DNA from: a virus
Lineage: Duplodnaviria > Caudoviricetes
DNA: 25,197 nucleotides
Virus record (IMG/VR): IMGVR_UViG_3300044262_000109
Coordinates: 1 to 25,197 of that record
Reading direction: 5' to 3' (one strand)
Made by a program: the position numbers and the translations under genes. Below the pieces are notes generated by a model that worked only from the letters and a program-made list of their open reading frames with translations, was not told the DNA's origin and searched no databases. Positions 4,038 through 23,793 of this stretch are shown here, in pieces. Every line of letters starts with the position of its first letter. Positions within the stretch are counted from its first letter, which is position 1.

Positions 4038-7000
4038 TGGTGCACCGGAGATAGTGCCAGGGCCAGAGAGTAGACGCGCTTGGCGGTGTCGTCTGGACCC
4101 AGTTCGTGGTACTCGACCGGGTCGATGCTGTCCATGTCCACCTGCACCAGCGCGGCATCGCCCGGGTGAAGGTGGTGCGGCACCAGGATCATCGGGTGGC
4201 CGGCCTGCTGCATGGCGTCCAGCATGGCCATGAGCGCGTCCAGATCGGCCTGGAAGAGGAAGCGGCTATCGGCGTCCCAGGCAATCTCGCCCTTGCGGCC
4301 CTGGCCCTGATAGAGGCGGTTGGCGTTGAGGCCATCGCCGCGCTGGATGGCGTAGGCCCGGGCGACGCGGCAGCGCGCGGCGCTGTAGGTGGTGGCCAGC
4401 GGCACCCCGGCCCAGATCCAGCCGATGCGGCCACCGCTGGCGCTGGCGACGGTGACGCGCAGGTGGCTGACCTCCCAGGCCGAGGCCAGGATGACCACCG
4501 AGACCGCGCCGGACACGTCCATGGCCTGGGATTCCGGCCAGGTCGCGCCGTCACCCCCCTCGATCGTCACCGTGGCGCCGGCCGGCAGGTCGTAGCGCGC
4601 CAGGGCCAGGGCCGCGACCGTCTCGACGCCGCCCAGGTCGACTGTCAGCACCGCGCCGGTACCGGACCAGGCCCAGGCCTCGACCGTGGGCACCAGCACA
4701 TGGCTCGGCGCGTTGGGCTGGCGGGCCTGGAAGGTCCAGGCGTCGGCCGCGACCCAGCTCGGCGCGGCGCCGGCGGTGAACCGGGCCGAGAGGCCGTCGA
4801 CGATGGCGATGTCACCGTCCTCGATGTCGGCCGGTGTCGACCAGGCACCGGCATCTTTCCGCCACTTGTATTGCGCGGCGGAAATCTCCACGGTGAACTG
4901 GTCGCCCAGGCCGAACGGGATGCCGCCCCGGTGGATTTGCACCTCGGCGCCGCCGTGGTGGTAGGCCGGCTCCAGGGCGGTGAGGTCGTAGTCGGCCAGG
5001 GGGCCGTCGACCGACCCCACCACCGACCAGGTCAGCGTATCGTCGCCGGTCACGCCGCCAGTCAGCCAGGCCGGTCCGGCCGCGACGACAGCCAGCTCGG
5101 CCGAGTCGCCGACCGCATACGGGCTGACGCCGTCGACCGCCTCGATGGCCACCGTAACCTGGTCGCCCACCTTCAGCCGCTCGGTACAGCCGACCGCGAT
5201 GTGCATGCCGAATTCCCGGGTGGAGTACGGCTCACCGGCCGGTATGCCGGCGCTGGCGCCGGAACCGCAGGACGCCGCCGAGCTGATGTAGGCCTTGTTG
5301 GAAAACGCGGGGAAATAGTACCCGGAGTCGTCGACCCACCAGTGGGTCGCGCTCGGGTCGTCACGCCAGCAGCCGTCCCCGGCTGCGGTGCTGGCGCTAG
5401 ATTTTGGGAGGATGCCCGCCGTGAGCAGGATGTTGTCGCAGGCAGCGCGGTAGCGGTCGAGGAATCGCGGATCATTGCTCGCGTTCGACGTCTCGTCACC
5501 GCCGCCGGTAATAACCGCGATATCGCCCTGTACCTCGGTCCACAGCGCGTCCCACTCGGCCACAGCCGCGGCAACTGAATACACCTGGGCCAGGCAATCG
5601 AGCATGATAGCCACGACAGAGTTGATCCAGTCGATGTCGGCCTGGTTGGCCAGGAAATACGACCGCGAATAGGAGGCACTGGATATCGGGCCGTCCACCA
5701 CCACACTGGCGACGGTAAGCACGGAACCAGGATAGACATCGCGTGGCAGCAGTTCTTCGTAGTCTGGCGCCAGCCCAAGCGAGACCGGAACTTCACCGCC
5801 CGCCGCGACGATGAAGCCAAGGTGCGGATAGTCGGTGCTATTCAATCCGGGCTCGGCGGCGCTGTAATAGACCGGATTGCCTACCGCAATTGCAGCAGCG
5901 GCAGTGCTTGCAGCCGCCGATGTCGCGTAGAGCAATTTTTGCGCGAAACCTGTACCGCCAGTCGAATCTGTCGACAGCACGCCGTCGGCGCCGGCCACAC
6001 CGCCTTCGCCGACAGTAGTCACGCGAACCTGGTAGTACGGGTCAGGCACCGTGGAAGTGCCGCTGCCGGCCTCGGCCGTCTCGTCCCGGATGAATGCCTC
6101 CCGGACGCCGTAAACATCGTCCAGACGACTCTTGTAGTCAGGGTCTATCGACATATCCGGCCCCTCCAGCCCGAGGCAGGCGTTCGTGATGCGCCCCGAC
6201 AGGGTCGCGGTGTTGCAATCACAGTCATTTTGCGGTCGCTCCCGATAGGTGAAGGTGATGGACTTCGGCCGCGCGTTGCGGCCCAAGGTGAAGTTGCGCA
6301 CGCAGACCGACGGCATCGCCTCGCCGTCCGCCCGCGTGGTCGGGTTGAATCGGGTCGCGAACCGACCGGCGCCGAGGTCGGATACGACCGGGTCCGGCAC
6401 GGTGAAGGACACGGCGCCGGACACGAACGGCACCCCAGTGGTGGCCTGGCCGAGCGCGCCGGATACCGGCCCGGACACGCTCCACACCTCGTCGCCGATG
6501 GCGTCGGCGTTAATGCAGGTGATGGATACCGTCTCGGTCGGCGCGGCGGCGGCCACGCTCACCGCCTCCAGGGCGGTACCGGACGCGGACAGCAGCCAGG
6601 CCGAGGTGCGCAATGGCACATCCACCGCCGCCATGCCGCCCGGCGCCCGGTCGGCCGCCACCACGCCGGCCACCTCGACCAGGTCGGAGCTGGCCAGCGC
6701 CGTACAGAGGTCGTAGAACGACACCACGTCGGCATAGGCCTCCGGCGTCACGCCATCGGTCACCACCACGTCATACCCGCCGGTCACCGCCCACACCACA
6801 GTCCCGGCCGTCACATCGCGCTGGAGCGCGGGCGACAGGCCGACGCGCCAGGCGCCATCCTTGTACTCACGATAGGGGCGATAGACCTCCGGGTCGTGGC
6901 CGAAGCGCAGGCGCGGGCTGGCCGCGTCCAGCTCGCCGGACGGCAGCAGCGGCAGCGCGCCGAACTCCCATTGCGGGCCGACCTGGTAGGCCTGGCCGGC

Positions 7001-10901: not shown

Positions 10902-10948
10902 ACCTTACGCGCGCGCGGCGCGCCGGGGGATGCTGACCGAGGTCAGTG
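10902..10948 (-). promoter_or_regulatory. putative activator-dependent late promoter for the tape measure/tail-tip operon
   Basis: CTGACC-ga-GGTCAG dyad at 10933-10946 and -10 TAAGGT (10907..10902), with the same spacing as the copy upstream of gene I. Confidence 0.7.
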
Positions 10949-18875: not shown

Positions 18876-19385
18876 TCAGGCGGAAGCCTGGGCGGCCAGG
18901 GTGGCCTGGAATGCCTTGGGGTCGACCCCCATGGCCGAGCACATGTCCAACTGGGAATCGGAGAGGGCGCCGGGCTTGCCGCCCAGATCCTTGTCGGAGG
19001 ACTGCATCCCCGCCAGGGCCGGGTTGGCCGGGGTGGCGGCGATGTAGGCCTTGAGCGCGGCCAGGTTGGACTTGCCCAGCTCCTCGGCCCAGGTCTTCTG
19101 GGCGGGCAGCAGGCGGCCCTCGGCCATGGCCTGGTCGATCACCCGCATCGACTCGTCGCCGTTCAGGCGGGCAGTCAGGGCGGCAACCTGGTCCCGGAGC
19201 CCCGTCATCACACCGACCTCGACATACTTCTCGGGGTCGGGCGCCTGGGCCTTCAGGGCGGCGATCTGGGTTTCCTGTTCGCCGGACTTGGCCTTGAGCG
19301 CGGCCACGCCGGCCAAGGCGTCGGCCTCGGTCGTGGTGTCCGGCAGGCCCAGCGCGGCGAGCAGCTTCTTCAGCGTTTCGTTCAC
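18876..19385 (-). CDS. internal in-frame scaffold protein (Mu gpZ analogue, 169 aa)
   Basis: GAGGAG-accacc-GTG at 19385, in frame inside gene I, as in Mu I/Z. Confidence 0.7.
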   Translation of the reverse strand: MNETLKKLLAALGLPDTTTEADALAGVAALKAKSGEQETQIAALKAQAPDPEKYVEVGVMTGLRDQVAALTARLNGDESMRVIDQAMAEGRLLPAQKTWAEELGKSNLAALKAYIAATPANPALAGMQSSDKDLGGKPGALSDSQLDMCSAMGVDPKAFQATLAAQASA

Positions 19386-19904
19386 GGTGGTCTCCTCGTC
19401 AGAGGTGGTGGGAAAGCGGGCGGACAGCGCGGCCAGGTCGGTCAGGCCATCGAGGCCGGCGAAGTTGACCAGGCCGGCGTGCTTGATATCCAGCACCCGA
19501 CCCTGGCTGTCGTAAGAGAAAACGGGGGATATGTAGCGGTATTCCTTCGCCGCGATCATCGCGGCGGCGCGCTCGGTCCATTCCGGAATGACGTACAGGC
19601 CGCCCGGCTCGCCGTCCGCCGGCTCGCGCCACTCCATGCCGGTGATCCAGCCAGCCGCAGGCGCGGGCTGGCCATTGCTGTCGGCCTTCAGGGTCTGGTG
19701 CTCGTAGTCGATCACCTTGTTGTCGGTGCGCGCATTGGCGCGGGCGATCACCTGGCGGGCCAGGTCGGCATCGATGGTCCAGCCCGGGATACCCTCCGGC
19801 CGGCCGGAGCCGTCAGCGGAGCGGAACAGCCCGGCCGGCAGCAGGCGGACGGCCTTGGCGACGGGGTCGAGCTGGAAAGAGAGGACGGCGATGCGGTGGT
19901 TCAT
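18876..19904 (-). CDS. Mu gpI-like prohead protease/scaffold (342 aa)
   Basis: LLPAG.F...DGSGRP, IDYEHQT, APAAGW, WTERAAAMIAAKEYRYISPVF. Confidence 0.92.
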   Translation of the reverse strand: MNHRIAVLSFQLDPVAKAVRLLPAGLFRSADGSGRPEGIPGWTIDADLARQVIARANARTDNKVIDYEHQTLKADSNGQPAPAAGWITGMEWREPADGEPGGLYVIPEWTERAAAMIAAKEYRYISPVFSYDSQGRVLDIKHAGLVNFAGLDGLTDLAALSARFPTTSDEETTVNETLKKLLAALGLPDTTTEADALAGVAALKAKSGEQETQIAALKAQAPDPEKYVEVGVMTGLRDQVAALTARLNGDESMRVIDQAMAEGRLLPAQKTWAEELGKSNLAALKAYIAATPANPALAGMQSSDKDLGGKPGALSDSQLDMCSAMGVDPKAFQATLAAQASA

Positions 19905-19911
19905 GGCCGCC

Positions 19912-19958
19912 AGTGTCGCGGCCGGGTGCGTGGTCCGGGATACTGACCACGGTCAGTG
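19912..19958 (-). promoter_or_regulatory. putative activator-dependent late promoter of the head operon (P_I analogue)
   Basis: ACTGACC-ac-GGTCAGT dyad at 19942-19957 and -10 GACACT (19917..19912), 7 nt before the ATG of gene I. Confidence 0.72.
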
Positions 19959-20013
19959 CCAACAAACCGCCCCGCGCGCGCGATCATCCCTACCACGGCC
20001 AGCGTTTTGCACC

Positions 20014-20019
20014 TATACT
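20014..20019 (+). promoter_or_regulatory. putative -10 (TATACT) of the accessory operon
   Basis: Near-consensus -10 just upstream of the structured leader; no clear -35. Confidence 0.45.
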
Positions 20020-20100
20020 GGCCGCACTGAATCTACGGCGGTAGCTGCACCGATCGGCAGACACTGCCGCCCACCTCGCCCGTGGGCGTTTGTTTTTAAT

Positions 20101-20180
20101 GGTCGGGTTGAGAGCGCCGAATACAACACCCGCAAGGGGAATGAGCGCCGGGTTCCGTAGAACCCAGTTGAGACCCGACC
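20101..20180 (+). ncRNA. C4/CI-like phage antisense RNA
   Basis: Closing stem GGTCGGGT/ACCCGACC, a CCC-GCAA-GGG GNRA hairpin and a GGGTTC-cgta-GAACCC hairpin. Segments are complementary to sites at 20205-20213, 20217-20224 and 20032-20038. Confidence 0.7.
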
Positions 20181-20231
20181 GCCCGCCGACTACTGACCGG
20201 CGGTTCTCAACTGAAATCTACGGAGGCCATC

Positions 20232-20453
20232 ATGGCTGCAATCATCCCCTTCCCGGCGCGCAATGCCGCGCCACAAAAAGCCCAAGATCGCTGTCTCGCC
20301 CTGGTCAAACAGTGGGCGCATGACGAGGCCACGCGCTACGACCACCCAGCCGAGCAACAGGACGTACCGCAAGACGACCTGGGGCGGCGGCTGACCGCCA
20401 TCGAAGCAAAGCTAGATACACTGCTGGCATCTGGAAAACGGAGGATGCAATGA
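20232..20453 (+). CDS. hypothetical protein (73 aa), first gene of the antisense-RNA-controlled accessory operon
   Basis: SD GGAGG at 20222-20226; IIPFP N-terminus and a short coiled coil RLTAIEAKLDTLL. Confidence 0.7.
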   Translation: MAAIIPFPARNAAPQKAQDRCLALVKQWAHDEATRYDHPAEQQDVPQDDLGRRLTAIEAKLDTLLASGKRRMQ

Positions 20454-20713
20454 TCGATTCTGCCAAGCAACCGCATAAACCAATGGCGGGCGAACGCAAG
20501 TCGCCTAGAGAGAAAGCAGCCAGTAACCCAGGCTCCGCCGTCCTGGCCATTGCTGCGTACTGCTATCACGAATGTCAAAACGAAGTTGCGATCAACTCGC
20601 ACAAGACCAAGTTCGCCATCAAGAACTGTGAAGTAACGGGATGCCCACTCTGGCCGTTTCGGGGCTGGAAACACGTCACAGGCGGAAGTACAACAAAGAA
20701 GCAAAACAAATGA
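20450..20713 (+). CDS. small basic Cys-motif (probable Zn-binding) protein (87 aa)
   Basis: ATGA coupling; SD GGAGG; AIAAYCYHEC...CEVTGCPLWPFR motif; visibly lower GC. Confidence 0.72.
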   Translation: MIDSAKQPHKPMAGERKSPREKAASNPGSAVLAIAAYCYHECQNEVAINSHKTKFAIKNCEVTGCPLWPFRGWKHVTGGSTTKKQNK

Positions 20714-20837
20714 TCGTTTTTTACTCGCGTCTAACGCTTATACGGCCTGTTGCGCGACACCAATATCGATGCAGGTATAGTCGGGTAGCCACCAACACCA
20801 TAAAACCCGGCAAATCGCTTTAAACAGCTTCCACACT

Positions 20838-20865
20838 CCCCGGCCAATCGCCGGGGTTTTTGTTT
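20838..20865 (+). terminator. Rho-independent terminator closing the accessory operon
   Basis: CCCCGGC-caatc-GCCGGGG followed by TTTTTGTTT. Confidence 0.75.
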
Positions 20866-21386
20866 CAGCCTTCCAGGTAGCTCCCGACCAGGTCGAGTAT
20901 CGTCCGCTCGTCCGCGTCCGACAAGCCCAGGAACGGCCGCGCCGGGATGTCGCCCCAGGGGGCCCCGCCGCCCAGGCTGCCCGCATCGGCGCCGAATTGC
21001 TGCACGCCGCCGTAGATGGTTGGCGTGCCGATCATCACGGCGCTGTCGCCGTCGAGCTGGTAGTCGATGGTCCCGGCCAGGTTTCCTTCAGCCACGAGCG
21101 GCTTCTTGCCCATCACCGTGCCGGCGCCCTTCTTGGTCAGCTTGCCGTCCTTCTTGCCGTAGACGCCTCCGCGTCCGGCCAGGTACATCAGAATGGTGGT
21201 CTCGGTGTTGGGCGCCCAGCGCTCGCCATCGGGGCCGGTGGAGGTGGCGAAGCGCCGCTGGGTGCTGTCCTGCACCTCCGCGCCGATCTCCAGCATCAGG
21301 GGCCGCAGGTCCGACAGCCGTCCGACCAGGCCAGCCAGGTAGGCCGCGGCGTCGCGGTCATCGTAGTCGATGGTCAGCAGGGCCAT
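20865..21386 (-). CDS. Mu gpG-like virion morphogenesis protein (173 aa)
   Basis: STQRRF....PDGERWAP...IGTPTIYGGVQQFG...IPARPFLGLS. Confidence 0.9.
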   Translation of the reverse strand: MALLTIDYDDRDAAAYLAGLVGRLSDLRPLMLEIGAEVQDSTQRRFATSTGPDGERWAPNTETTILMYLAGRGGVYGKKDGKLTKKGAGTVMGKKPLVAEGNLAGTIDYQLDGDSAVMIGTPTIYGGVQQFGADAGSLGGGAPWGDIPARPFLGLSDADERTILDLVGSYLEG

Positions 21387-21480
21387 GGCTTGCTATCCTT
21401 ATCTGGTGGGCGGTTGTTTCCAATGGGAACGGTTAGGGGCGGGCATCCGCAACTATGATCCGGTTCGAATCCGGCGCCGC

Positions 21481-22716
21481 TCACGCCCCCAACGGCACAT
21501 ATCGCCGATCTCCCTCGATGTTACCCCGGTCGACCCGGCCGCCGGTGCGGATGAAATTCGCCCGGATGCGCTGGCGCTCGCCCTCGATACGGACCTTGTC
21601 GCTGTAATCGACCCGCACGACGACCTTGCCGAGCTCGGCGCCCAGGTCGATCGCGTAGACCAGGGCGTGGTCGACGGTGTCCAGATAGGGCTTCGCCCCG
21701 GCCAGCAGCGCCGGCAGGTCTCGCCACACCGACACCGGCAGGGCCGTGCCAAGGCCGGCCTTCGCGTCGCGCAGGCCGTGCAGCAACTCCTGGTCGCGCA
21801 ACCAGACCCCGGCGCTCTGGGGCGCGACGTTGCGGGCCGCCAGGTCGGCCAGCGTCTTCTCGGCGAGGGTGTGTACCAGCAGTGTCTCGCTGTGGGCCTG
21901 CATCGTTGTTTCGACCCGGTCGACCATGGCTGCCACGGCACGGCCGATCTCGGCCTGGATGACGGGCCGTAGCGCCGATGCCATGGCCGCCCCGATGGGC
22001 GCCTCCAGGTTGAGCAGCTTCTGGTCGACCAGGTCGCGCAGCTCGGCCTGGGCGTTCGCGCCGGGGGCGTAGTCCCAGCCTCGGTCGATGCCGGGCAGGC
22101 GGCCCTTGGTGTCACGCTGGTTCCAGCCGGCCGGGGGTTCGATGGCGTCGCCCTCTGCCGGCGCCCGCACGGCCTTGACGCGGCAGCGGCAGCCCCAGCC
22201 ATTTGGCGGGTAGTGGGTGAGCCAGAAGGCATCATTGTGGTGCAGGGTCAGCCCGGCATCGCCCCATTCCTTGTGCTGTTTCCTGGGGTGCGCCACCGAG
22301 TCGTTGTGAATGTAGCGCCAGTACGGCCGCACTTTGAGCAGGTCGGGGTCGTTGAGCTGCTGCCATCGTCCGGCGGCGTAACTGGAGGCGATGTTGGTGT
22401 TGTAGACCACCCTGGTGCGCCAGGCCTCGCCGGCCTGGGTGCCCTCGCCGGTCCAGCCGGTCCAGCCATGTTTAGCCACGATGGCCTTGAAGTTCTTGCG
22501 GAACGTGGCCAGGGTGTCGCCGTTTGCGATGGCGCCGTCGACCGCTCGGCGCAGATCGTCGAGCAGGTCCGCCGACTGGGCGCCGGCGACGATGAAGGCG
22601 CGGTCGTGGGCGGCGGTCCAGATGTCGTCCCAGCGTTCGGTGGGCAGATTGAGCTTGCGGCGGAAGAAGTCGATCTGCTCCCGGAACGGCAGGCGAACGG
22701 TGAGGATATCGGCCAC
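21481..22716 (-). CDS. Mu gpF-like minor head protein (411 aa)
   Basis: PFREQIDFFRRK, AHDRAFIVAG, HPRKQH..W, FWLTHYPPNGWGCRC. Confidence 0.92.
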   Translation of the reverse strand: MADILTVRLPFREQIDFFRRKLNLPTERWDDIWTAAHDRAFIVAGAQSADLLDDLRRAVDGAIANGDTLATFRKNFKAIVAKHGWTGWTGEGTQAGEAWRTRVVYNTNIASSYAAGRWQQLNDPDLLKVRPYWRYIHNDSVAHPRKQHKEWGDAGLTLHHNDAFWLTHYPPNGWGCRCRVKAVRAPAEGDAIEPPAGWNQRDTKGRLPGIDRGWDYAPGANAQAELRDLVDQKLLNLEAPIGAAMASALRPVIQAEIGRAVAAMVDRVETTMQAHSETLLVHTLAEKTLADLAARNVAPQSAGVWLRDQELLHGLRDAKAGLGTALPVSVWRDLPALLAGAKPYLDTVDHALVYAIDLGAELGKVVVRVDYSDKVRIEGERQRIRANFIRTGGRVDRGNIEGDRRYVPLGA

Positions 22717-22718
22717 GC

Positions 22719-23522
22719 CTATCCCTCGTCGGCCACGTCACCCATGCCCCACAGGTGCCCGGCCGCCATCGCCTCGCTCATGGCCACCACCAGGCCGGCG
22801 CGGTCGATCGTCGGGTAGGCGGCGACCAGCATCTCGCGGAAGGCCTCCAGACTGTCGGCCTGGTCGAGCATGGCGCGGATGGTCTCCAGCCAGGCCTCGA
22901 TGTTGGGGGCCGCCACGCCGGCCAGGCGGGCGGCGAGCTGGTCCTCGATGGGGATGTCGGCCGGTACCGATCCGGACAGGGCCGCCAGGGCTGTCTTGTT
23001 CGCCCCATCCGCTGGCGTTGTTCCCTCACCCCGGGCCCCTCTCCCGGTGGGCGATGGGGGTACACCGAACACCGCCTCGTCCCCGGCCGCCTGGGGGATG
23101 CGCAGCTTCTCATGCACCCAGGCGACCGGGATGCGGGCGCCGTTCTCGGCCAGCTTCGGCAGCGCCTCGGAGTAGGTCTTCAGATCCTCGGCGCTGCCGG
23201 TGTCGAACACCCAGCGCGGGCAGCGTAACAGACCGTTGATGCCGGGCCGGTTTAACGCGATCAGCGGATACACCAGGTCGCGGGTGAGCGTGCCGGCCAC
23301 CTGGCGGGCGTCGGCGTCGCGGATGACGGCCAGGCCGAGGCGGTGTGCGACCAGGGCGTCGCGCACGGGCTTGGGGAGGGTGGCAACCGGGTAGTGACGG
23401 CGACGGCCACCGCGCACGGGGTGTTCCTGGTAGGGCCAGGATTCACGCTCAGCTCGTTGGCTGGCTGCCTGACGGCTGACACCCAGCGCCGCCGCGATCT
23501 CGATCAGGGTGGCGTGGTTCAT
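22719..23522 (-). other. in-frame fusion ORF: MuA transposase N-terminal HTH domain joined to the C-terminal part of a Mu gp29-like portal
   Basis: EIAAALGVSRQAASQRAERESW...GGRRRHYPVATLPKPVRDAL (Mu-type HTH), then from about 23324 IRDADARQVAGTLTRDLVYPL...CPRWVFDT..EDL...LPKL (gp29/DUF935 C-terminus). Alternative start at 23540. Confidence 0.8.
23023..23060 (+). repeat. REP-like CCCTCACCCC..CCCCTCTCCC palindromic element lying in frame in the portal C-terminal linker
   Basis: ccctcaccccgggcccctctcccggtgggcgatggggg; translates as PSPTGRGARGEG on the - strand. Confidence 0.55.
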
Positions 23523-23538
23523 GGCATGATTCGCGCTC

Positions 23539-23793
23539 ATGGACGACCCCGATTTCAATCAATTGCTCGACCGCGTAATGGCGATCGAGTTTGCCCTGTC
23601 AGAGCTTGTTGTTGAGCTTGAGCGGTCTGGCCGTCTTGACGAGGGCTCGCTCGATCTACGCCTGGCAAGGGTGTCTTCGGAGATTCTGGAAGGCTCTGCG
23701 CCTCACCAGGGCGATCCTCGTCGCGACCTTTCCGGGATTTCCGAAGATCTAGAATCGCTGATCGACGACTTAGTGCGTGCTCGTAGGCGTTGA
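23539..23793 (+). CDS. acidic helical hypothetical protein (84 aa), antisense to the early operon
   Basis: Fills the gap between 23797 and the fusion ORF; more protein-like than the overlapping - strand ORF. Confidence 0.5.
   Translation: MDDPDFNQLLDRVMAIEFALSELVVELERSGRLDEGSLDLRLARVSSEILEGSAPHQGDPRRDLSGISEDLESLIDDLVRARRR

Follow-up and report, generated by a model that had tools for sequence, protein, structure and literature searches.

The window analysed here, a 25,197-nt stretch of viral DNA, carries between two Mu-like head genes an RNA of the sRNA-Xcc1 family followed by two small overlapping genes. Judging from comparison of related loci, this RNA and two pairing sites that covary with it probably make up an antisense switch of the C4/CI type, which would block translation of ORF1 and of the overlapping ORF2. 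The original prediction had read the locus as a C4/CI-like antisense switch, and covariation supports that reading strongly. The RNA family is a known one; what is new is a C4-type switch in Mu-like head regions with swappable cargo. Literature searches, outside the 2011 family paper and most subscription journals, returned no earlier report of C4-type RNA control in Mu-like phages and no statement of sRNA-Xcc1 as C4-like or as occurring in these phages.

The cassette between genes I and G

The cassette (20014-20865) lies on the strand opposite to the Mu-like head genes. It is flanked on the left, divergently, by gene I, the Mu-like head maturation protease (18876-19904, minus strand; phrog_328, E 5e-103; PF10123), and on the right, convergently, by gene G, assigned to tail completion or virion morphogenesis (20865-21386, minus strand; phrog_26; PF05069), which confirms the G-I position proposed earlier. 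The GC content is 0.50-0.61 over the ORFs, compared with 0.66-0.71 in the flanks. An ORF at 22719-23558 (minus strand) fuses the DNA-binding N-terminus of Mu transposase (aa 11-74) to the C-terminus of the portal protein (aa 79-278), and one assembled piece spans this junction. In run X1, possibly the source sample, one assembled piece covers 19500-22547 without differences. The element looks like a deletion derivative without the genes normally found between A and the portal gene.

Fold prediction gives the 80-mer at 20101-20180 (plus strand) a three-way junction with a long closing stem (z -3.4; none of 200 shuffles was equally stable), in agreement with the 80-nt cloverleaf-like RNA that had been described there, and GGT is present at its 5' end. 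In Rfam, the RNA scores 59 bits against sRNA-Xcc1 (RF02221; gathering cut-off 53), with a hit at 20101-20188 that covers positions 1-87 of the 87-position model, and the orthologous RNA at a related locus (L393) scores 56.1 bits. On family membership the original prediction missed, having named C4, c4-2 and c4-a1b1 and overlooked RF02221. The 80-mer scores 15.6 bits (E 6.7) against C4 (RF01695; cut-off 45), and c4-2, c4-a1b1 and isrK are absent among the nine Rfam matches with E up to 10 within 19900-20900, a search in which clan-overlap filtering could mask a weaker c4-2 match beneath C4.

Other members of the family accumulate as RNA. In Xcc, RACE and Northern blotting showed a discrete RNA of 88 nt, as given in the portion of PMC2996969 consulted, and the member in E. 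coli EDL933 is abundant and untranslated, with an RPKM of 25,609 and a ribosome coverage of 0.02 (excerpt of PMC5331693, Table 1). From its length and position, we take the EDL933 RNA to be the 933W copy. Among named relatives, a close one is the sRNA-Xcc1 copy that precedes the antirepressor gene L0142 in phage 933W (75% over 137 nt); it shares with the cassette the -10, the start of the leader and a spacer hairpin (20183-20203, plus strand; CCGCCG/CGGCGG with a CTACT-containing loop) that is also found in L393. Another candidate, the Stx-phage sRNA 24B_1, was set apart by its location and shape (lom region, long hairpin) as described in extracts of PMC4426718 and PMC10732415, not by sequence.

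Two segments of the RNA find complementary sites nearby. The loop TCCGTAGA (20154-20161) pairs with TCTACGGA (20217-20224) and the 3' junction CAGTTGAGA (20165-20173) with TCTCAACTG (20205-20213), giving a downstream target pair (20205-20226, plus strand) that overlaps the Shine-Dalgarno sequence GGAGG (20222-20226). None of 5,000 dinucleotide shuffles reached this two-site match of 16 nt, and the duplex predicted between the RNA and the downstream target (20205-20225) comprises 9+9 bp at -26.7 kcal/mol and covers the start of the GGAGG of ORF1. The upstream target (20026-20038, plus strand) consists of ACTG, the junction partner, and TCTACGG, the loop partner, and its duplex is weaker, with 7+4 bp at -13.3 kcal/mol. 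Its shuffle score of 12 (equalled by 17 of 5,000 shuffles) overstates the site, because a 5-nt match at 20017-20021 inside the -10 is counted; the reality of the upstream copy rests instead on its covariation with the loop, seen in L393 and across 11 cassettes. The strings and coordinates quoted in the original prediction, both pairings and the upstream copy are all correct in the sequence.

The putative cassette promoter (19991-20019, plus strand) aligns with those of L393 and 933W and combines a degenerate -35, TACCAC (19991-19996), with a conserved -10, TATACT (20014-20019), which is kept in L393 and reads CATACT in 933W. In other members of this RNA subfamily, TTGCNN stands 17-18 nt away from the -10. 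A promoter scan called none at the cassette -10, which it missed because the -35 is degenerate. A 7-bp inverted repeat, CGGCCAG/CTGGCCG (19996-20024), surrounds this -10 and may serve as an operator or, in a longer transcript, form a hairpin; L393 does not keep the left arm of the repeat.

The leader (20037-20097, plus strand) is predicted to form two hairpins, as in most Mu cassettes, and ends in a terminator-like hairpin (20068-20088) with an interrupted U-tract. When the upstream site was blocked in silico, only the outermost terminator pair was freed (0.04 to 0.56) and the inner pairs formed regardless; folding models of other Mu cassettes show a similarly weak terminator response. At the far end, a hairpin resembling an intrinsic terminator with a T-run (20838-20866, plus strand) closes the unit against gene G, and L393 has a similar one. 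The claim that the unit has its own -10 and terminator holds partly: the sites are present and the -10 is conserved, but the -35 is degenerate and the number of terminator-like sites (three, against a shuffle mean of 1.6) is not significant alone. A promoter-like site (20754-20781, plus strand; 9/12) lies between ORF2 and the terminator, where about 0.5 per region is expected by chance.

On the other side, the dyad ACTGACC-AC-GGTCAGT (19942-19957) is followed after 24 nt by the -10-like GACACT (19912-19917) and, after a further 7 nt, by the ATG of gene I. A second copy at 10932-10947 has the identical 24-nt spacing to a -10-like hexamer, and in L393, L446 and L448 a dyad precedes the protease gene at a comparable distance. 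The dyad at 19942-19957 is likely the late-activator site of the gene I promoter, a role that we presume from Mu biology. A gene I transcript from the GACACT promoter candidate would be leaderless. Scanning viral contigs for the dyad gave essentially random matches, with one of 120 loci near a Mu gene.

Covariation of loops and targets

A scan with the 23-nt core of the RNA returned at least 120 viral loci, with an estimated total of about 500 stretches, and 17 of 20 core-motif loci checked exceed the RF02221 cut-off. From 123 motif matches, including the RNA described here, three with short flanks, 39 with duplicate 3' domains and one that could not be parsed were dropped, leaving 79 viral RNAs and the RNA at 20101-20180; kinship within this set of 80 is reduced only by the removal of identical 3' domains. 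RCC(A/C) occurs close to the 3' end in 64 of them. The loop and junction of each RNA were then compared as a two-site match with the flanks of every RNA.

The two-site match is clearly specific to the local partner. Downstream, cognate pairs average 12.4 and non-cognate pairs 8.4; upstream, the values are 12.3 and 8.4, and neither difference was reached in 20,000 permutations. A match of at least 12 is found downstream for 66 and upstream for 55 of the 80 RNAs. These RNAs carry 74 distinct loop segments, which are tracked by their local targets, and the downstream site for the loop has its end at or within the Shine-Dalgarno sequence, mostly 6-12 nt before the ATG.

A bacterial set was assembled in the same form (121 matches; six short, 33 duplicate and four unparsed removed, leaving 78 RNAs). 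Here the cognate match exceeds the non-cognate one both upstream (14.3 vs 8.9) and downstream (10.6 vs 7.8), again with 0 of 20,000 permutations, and matches of at least 12 are present upstream at 71 of the 78 RNAs but downstream at only 38. Most Xanthomonadaceae copies retain the upstream site only. Examples are L135, L159, L171, L197 and L206, with a strong upstream target of 15-16 nt and the downstream one lost. The RNA of L206 precedes symE and may be an attenuating antitoxin. In a separate GC-rich subgroup (L001, L004, L023, L115 and similar loci), the 23-nt core is kept, the 3' domain is shorter and local targets are undetectable.

Ten other Mu-like head regions carry cassettes resembling the one in the window. 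A 20-nt pattern built on the RNA only matched eight viral loci, all eight with homologues of Mu F, G or I no more than 3 kb away; by comparison, a Mu F, G or I gene was found at one of 120 general core-motif loci, 40 of which have short flanks. L393, found through its F gene, holds an orthologous cassette, flanked there by G and by a head protease from a different family. Its loop carries a G-to-A change that is compensated by C-to-T in both targets. After duplicates were merged, 11 Mu cassettes, including the one at 20014-20865, carry 11 different loops, and the cognate target is the sole best match for 10 of 11 downstream and 9 of 11 upstream (0 of 100,000 permutations). The loop-target covariation that had been suggested as a check is thus found in the viral (80), bacterial (78) and Mu (11) sets alike. 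The cassette is an occasional guest in Mu relatives, present at 2 of the 68 loci selected through F, G or I, and the core motif occurs at none of the 18 loci that show both G and I.

The cargo genes

ORF1 (20232-20453, plus strand) encodes 73 aa with an IxFP N-terminus and a leucine-patterned C-terminal stretch. Its relatives are P0004, the L393 protein (49%) and those of L431, L438 and L439, the last three aligned by eye only. It has no match in Pfam, PHROG, PADLOC or the PDB, where its profile gave only weak coiled-coil matches. ORF2 (20450-20713, plus strand) encodes a basic protein of 87 aa with four cysteines (C38, C42, C60 and C65); its ATGA overlap with ORF1 suggests translational coupling of the two.

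More relatives are available for ORF2, with 19 matches including ORF2 itself and 96 representatives in a wider set. In an alignment of 20 sequences, C38, C60 and C65 are present in all and C42 in nearly all, and the ends are basic. ORF2 is likely a zinc-binding domain. The domain also occurs in tandem pairs within longer proteins; 20 of the longer relatives contain no informative fused domain, and one has an HTH. No match to ORF2 was found in Pfam, PHROGs, PADLOC, NCBIfam or the PDB. A model from the 20 sequences has three helices (pLDDT 70) and no Foldseek match at E 0.001 in the PDB or viral libraries; a fold from two sequences (pLDDT 49) was unusable. In the Atlas, ORF2 appears only in unnamed viral clusters and ORF1 gives nothing. 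Metagenome scans and a viral scan with the single ORF2 sequence returned nothing.

A scan with the ORF2 profile yielded 17 loci, 16 of which adjoin Mu F, G or I head genes. The RNA is upstream at six of the 17 and absent at eight; two loci are cut short and one is marginal. Six relatives (L441, L444, L446, L448, L451 and L452) occur singly in the Mu head block, oriented against the head genes and without the RNA. Read by eye, the RNA-less relatives have promoter-like sequences ahead of them. That relatives often lack the RNA and sit behind such sequences argues against ORF2 as a potent toxin.

The content of the Mu cassettes varies. An ORF1-like gene with ORF2 is found at the locus described here, L435 and L438, and L439 adds two more genes. 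L432 carries a Bro-N gene of antirepressor type, and the second gene of L434 has a weak P22_AR_N match. In L433 (284-613) and L436 (3533-3826), the second gene behind the RNA switch encodes 98-110 aa that match only the N-terminal third of Mu gp27, the small terminase; these short gp27 genes are candidate packaging decoys. Across the family, the gene next downstream carries an AntA, KilA-N, Bro-N, P22_AR_N, Rha or ORF6N domain at 56 of the 76 viral loci that have an ORF. The earlier suggestion of antirepressor-like cargo fits the RNA family in this respect, but ORF1 and ORF2 themselves match no family.

Proposed mechanism, alternatives and related systems

Under the antisense-switch reading, a single transcript would run from the -10 at 20014-20019, starting near 20026, through the leader, the RNA, ORF1 and ORF2. 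The tRNA-like 80-mer would be excised, probably by RNase P at the 5' GGT as for C4, and would accumulate. Its loop and 3' junction would pair in trans with new transcripts, downstream over the first Shine-Dalgarno bases, blocking ribosome entry; pairing upstream, on the leader, would probably favour early termination or act as a decoy. The cargo would be expressed chiefly upon entry of the DNA into a cell without matching RNA and would be off in the lysogen, and different loops would stop related phages from silencing each other. Such a pulse of cargo on entry would follow from the logic of C4, and we give it roughly an even chance; for this copy it is weakened by the degenerate -35, the transposase-portal deletion and the eight RNA-less ORF2 loci. 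For the cargo, a part in phage-phage or phage-gene regulation is most likely, not one as an anti-CRISPR, and ORF2 would be a small zinc-binding, nucleic-acid-binding protein in a slot elsewhere taken by DNA-binding domains of the antirepressor or gp27 type.

Several other explanations were weighed against this. The RNA could act in cis only, its 3' half folding onto the downstream site of the same transcript and hiding the ribosome-binding site, so that no trans RNA would be needed. This mode is conceivable because the uncut precursor (20101-20240) is predicted at equilibrium to pair in cis with probability 1.0, losing the closing stem of the RNA. We nevertheless regard it as unlikely: covariation is as tight at the upstream copy as at the downstream one, other family members build up as discrete RNAs, and transcription finishes the closing stem 25 nt ahead of the target. 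Comparably unlikely is a late reading, in which a second promoter that shares the gene I dyad (GATCAT, 19982-19987, facing the cassette) would drive expression during virion assembly and not on entry. GATCAT lies 24 nt from the dyad, the spacing of the gene I and tail-region promoter candidates, and sits at the gene I -10 position in L125, and the own -35 of the cassette is degenerate; but the equally symmetric dyad of L393 has by eye no outward -10 at 23-25 nt, an outward -10 is missing in L446 and only weak in L448, and the scan of the collection for the dyad is uninformative. An idle switch, functional in the parent phage and compatible with the antisense-switch reading, is a possibility of somewhat greater weight, though still a doubtful one. 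The transposase-portal fusion ORF, its junction spanned by one assembled piece, and the degenerate -35 speak for it; against it stands the intact state of the RNA, the two targets, ORF1, ORF2 and the terminator.

An anti-CRISPR or other anti-defence operon, one of the options named in the original prediction, is improbable. Its basis was position, between G and I as in D3112-like phages, and the small size of the proteins; like the acr-aca operons in RGP G of D3112-like Pseudomonas phages, the locus holds accessory low-GC genes in the head region, and a GC content below that of the flanks is reported for RGP G in the excerpted text of PMC4378225. In the same excerpts, one accessory ORF accompanies all known acr genes. 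The cassette, unlike these operons, has no aca-like HTH gene, no Acr match and no match in Pfam, PHROG, NCBIfam or PADLOC, carries an RNA in place of a protein repressor, and runs opposite to the head genes; moreover, the slot is elsewhere occupied by antirepressor-type and gp27-type genes. Very improbable is a role of sRNA-Xcc1 as a trans-acting regulator of host or plant genes with incidental local matches, as it is described in parts of PMC12189769, bioRxiv 2025.06.18.660453 and the APSE preprint. The sections consulted of these sources and of PMC2996969 present it as trans-acting and virulence-linked, with no cis targets, and the APSE preprint, in the part consulted, analyses targets for C4 and not for sRNA-Xcc1. 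Here, unlike in those papers, the RNA is found among Mu-like head genes and precedes genes without a known family. Local targets track 74 distinct loops among 80 RNAs, with a compensatory change in L393. By this covariation, host or plant regulation is refuted as the sole role, which leaves room for a side role on host mRNAs.

A broader proposal is tentative, and we would not expect all of it to hold: the sRNA-Xcc1 switches in the head-gene block of Mu-like phages may form a clade of their own. Each would be an exchangeable, RNA-gated cassette whose loop code is particular to its phage, and it would release a pulse of anti-competitor protein (antirepressors, truncated gp27 decoys or a Mu-specific Cys4 zinc protein) only in cells without matching RNA. 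If true, this would amount to a second, RNA-coded immunity layer in Mu-like phages and provide a guilt-by-association marker for new phage-phage conflict proteins. The antisense-switch reading itself offers a testable mechanism for an Rfam family regarded in papers as a trans-acting sRNA linked to virulence. The 11 natural loop-target pairs make cross-repression testable and are potential orthogonal translational switches, and the switch marks a slot of unstudied small proteins, including the shortened gp27, as candidates for phage-phage interference.

Among known systems, one close in logic is C4 of phages P1 and P7, in which target pairs lie on both sides of the RNA and icd and ant are coupled. 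The RNA described here is likewise about 80 nt long, with a three-stem junction, a GGT 5' end and a variable specificity loop, has its second pairing segment at the 3' junction and pairs across the ribosome-binding site, all of which are C4 features given in the sections of PMC5320573 consulted. According to these sections, RNase P processes C4 at the GGT. Unlike C4 (RF01695), its middle arm is the Xcc1 core AATACAA-ACCCGCAAGGGGAAT in place of a short C4 hairpin, and its cargo is not Icd/Ant by family search. With the P4 CI RNA, seqA and seqC, and with Gifsy-1 IsrK, in which a processed RNA pairs with complementary sites on both of its sides (part of PMC4825925 consulted), the cassette shares the sites upstream and downstream of its RNA. 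P4 CI acts by premature termination, whereas the folding models here change only the outer terminator pair, and unlike Gifsy-1 IsrK the cassette leader has no isrK match.

Two further arrangements were seen on other contigs. On the viral contig L130, a Mu-like protease match is closely followed on its downstream side by a true Rfam C4 RNA (4586-4674; 71 bits). L030 (1160-2491) carries isrK-C4, sRNA-Xcc1 and isrK-C4 in tandem on one strand; judging from this array, the isrK-C4 and sRNA-Xcc1 families act as sibling modules.
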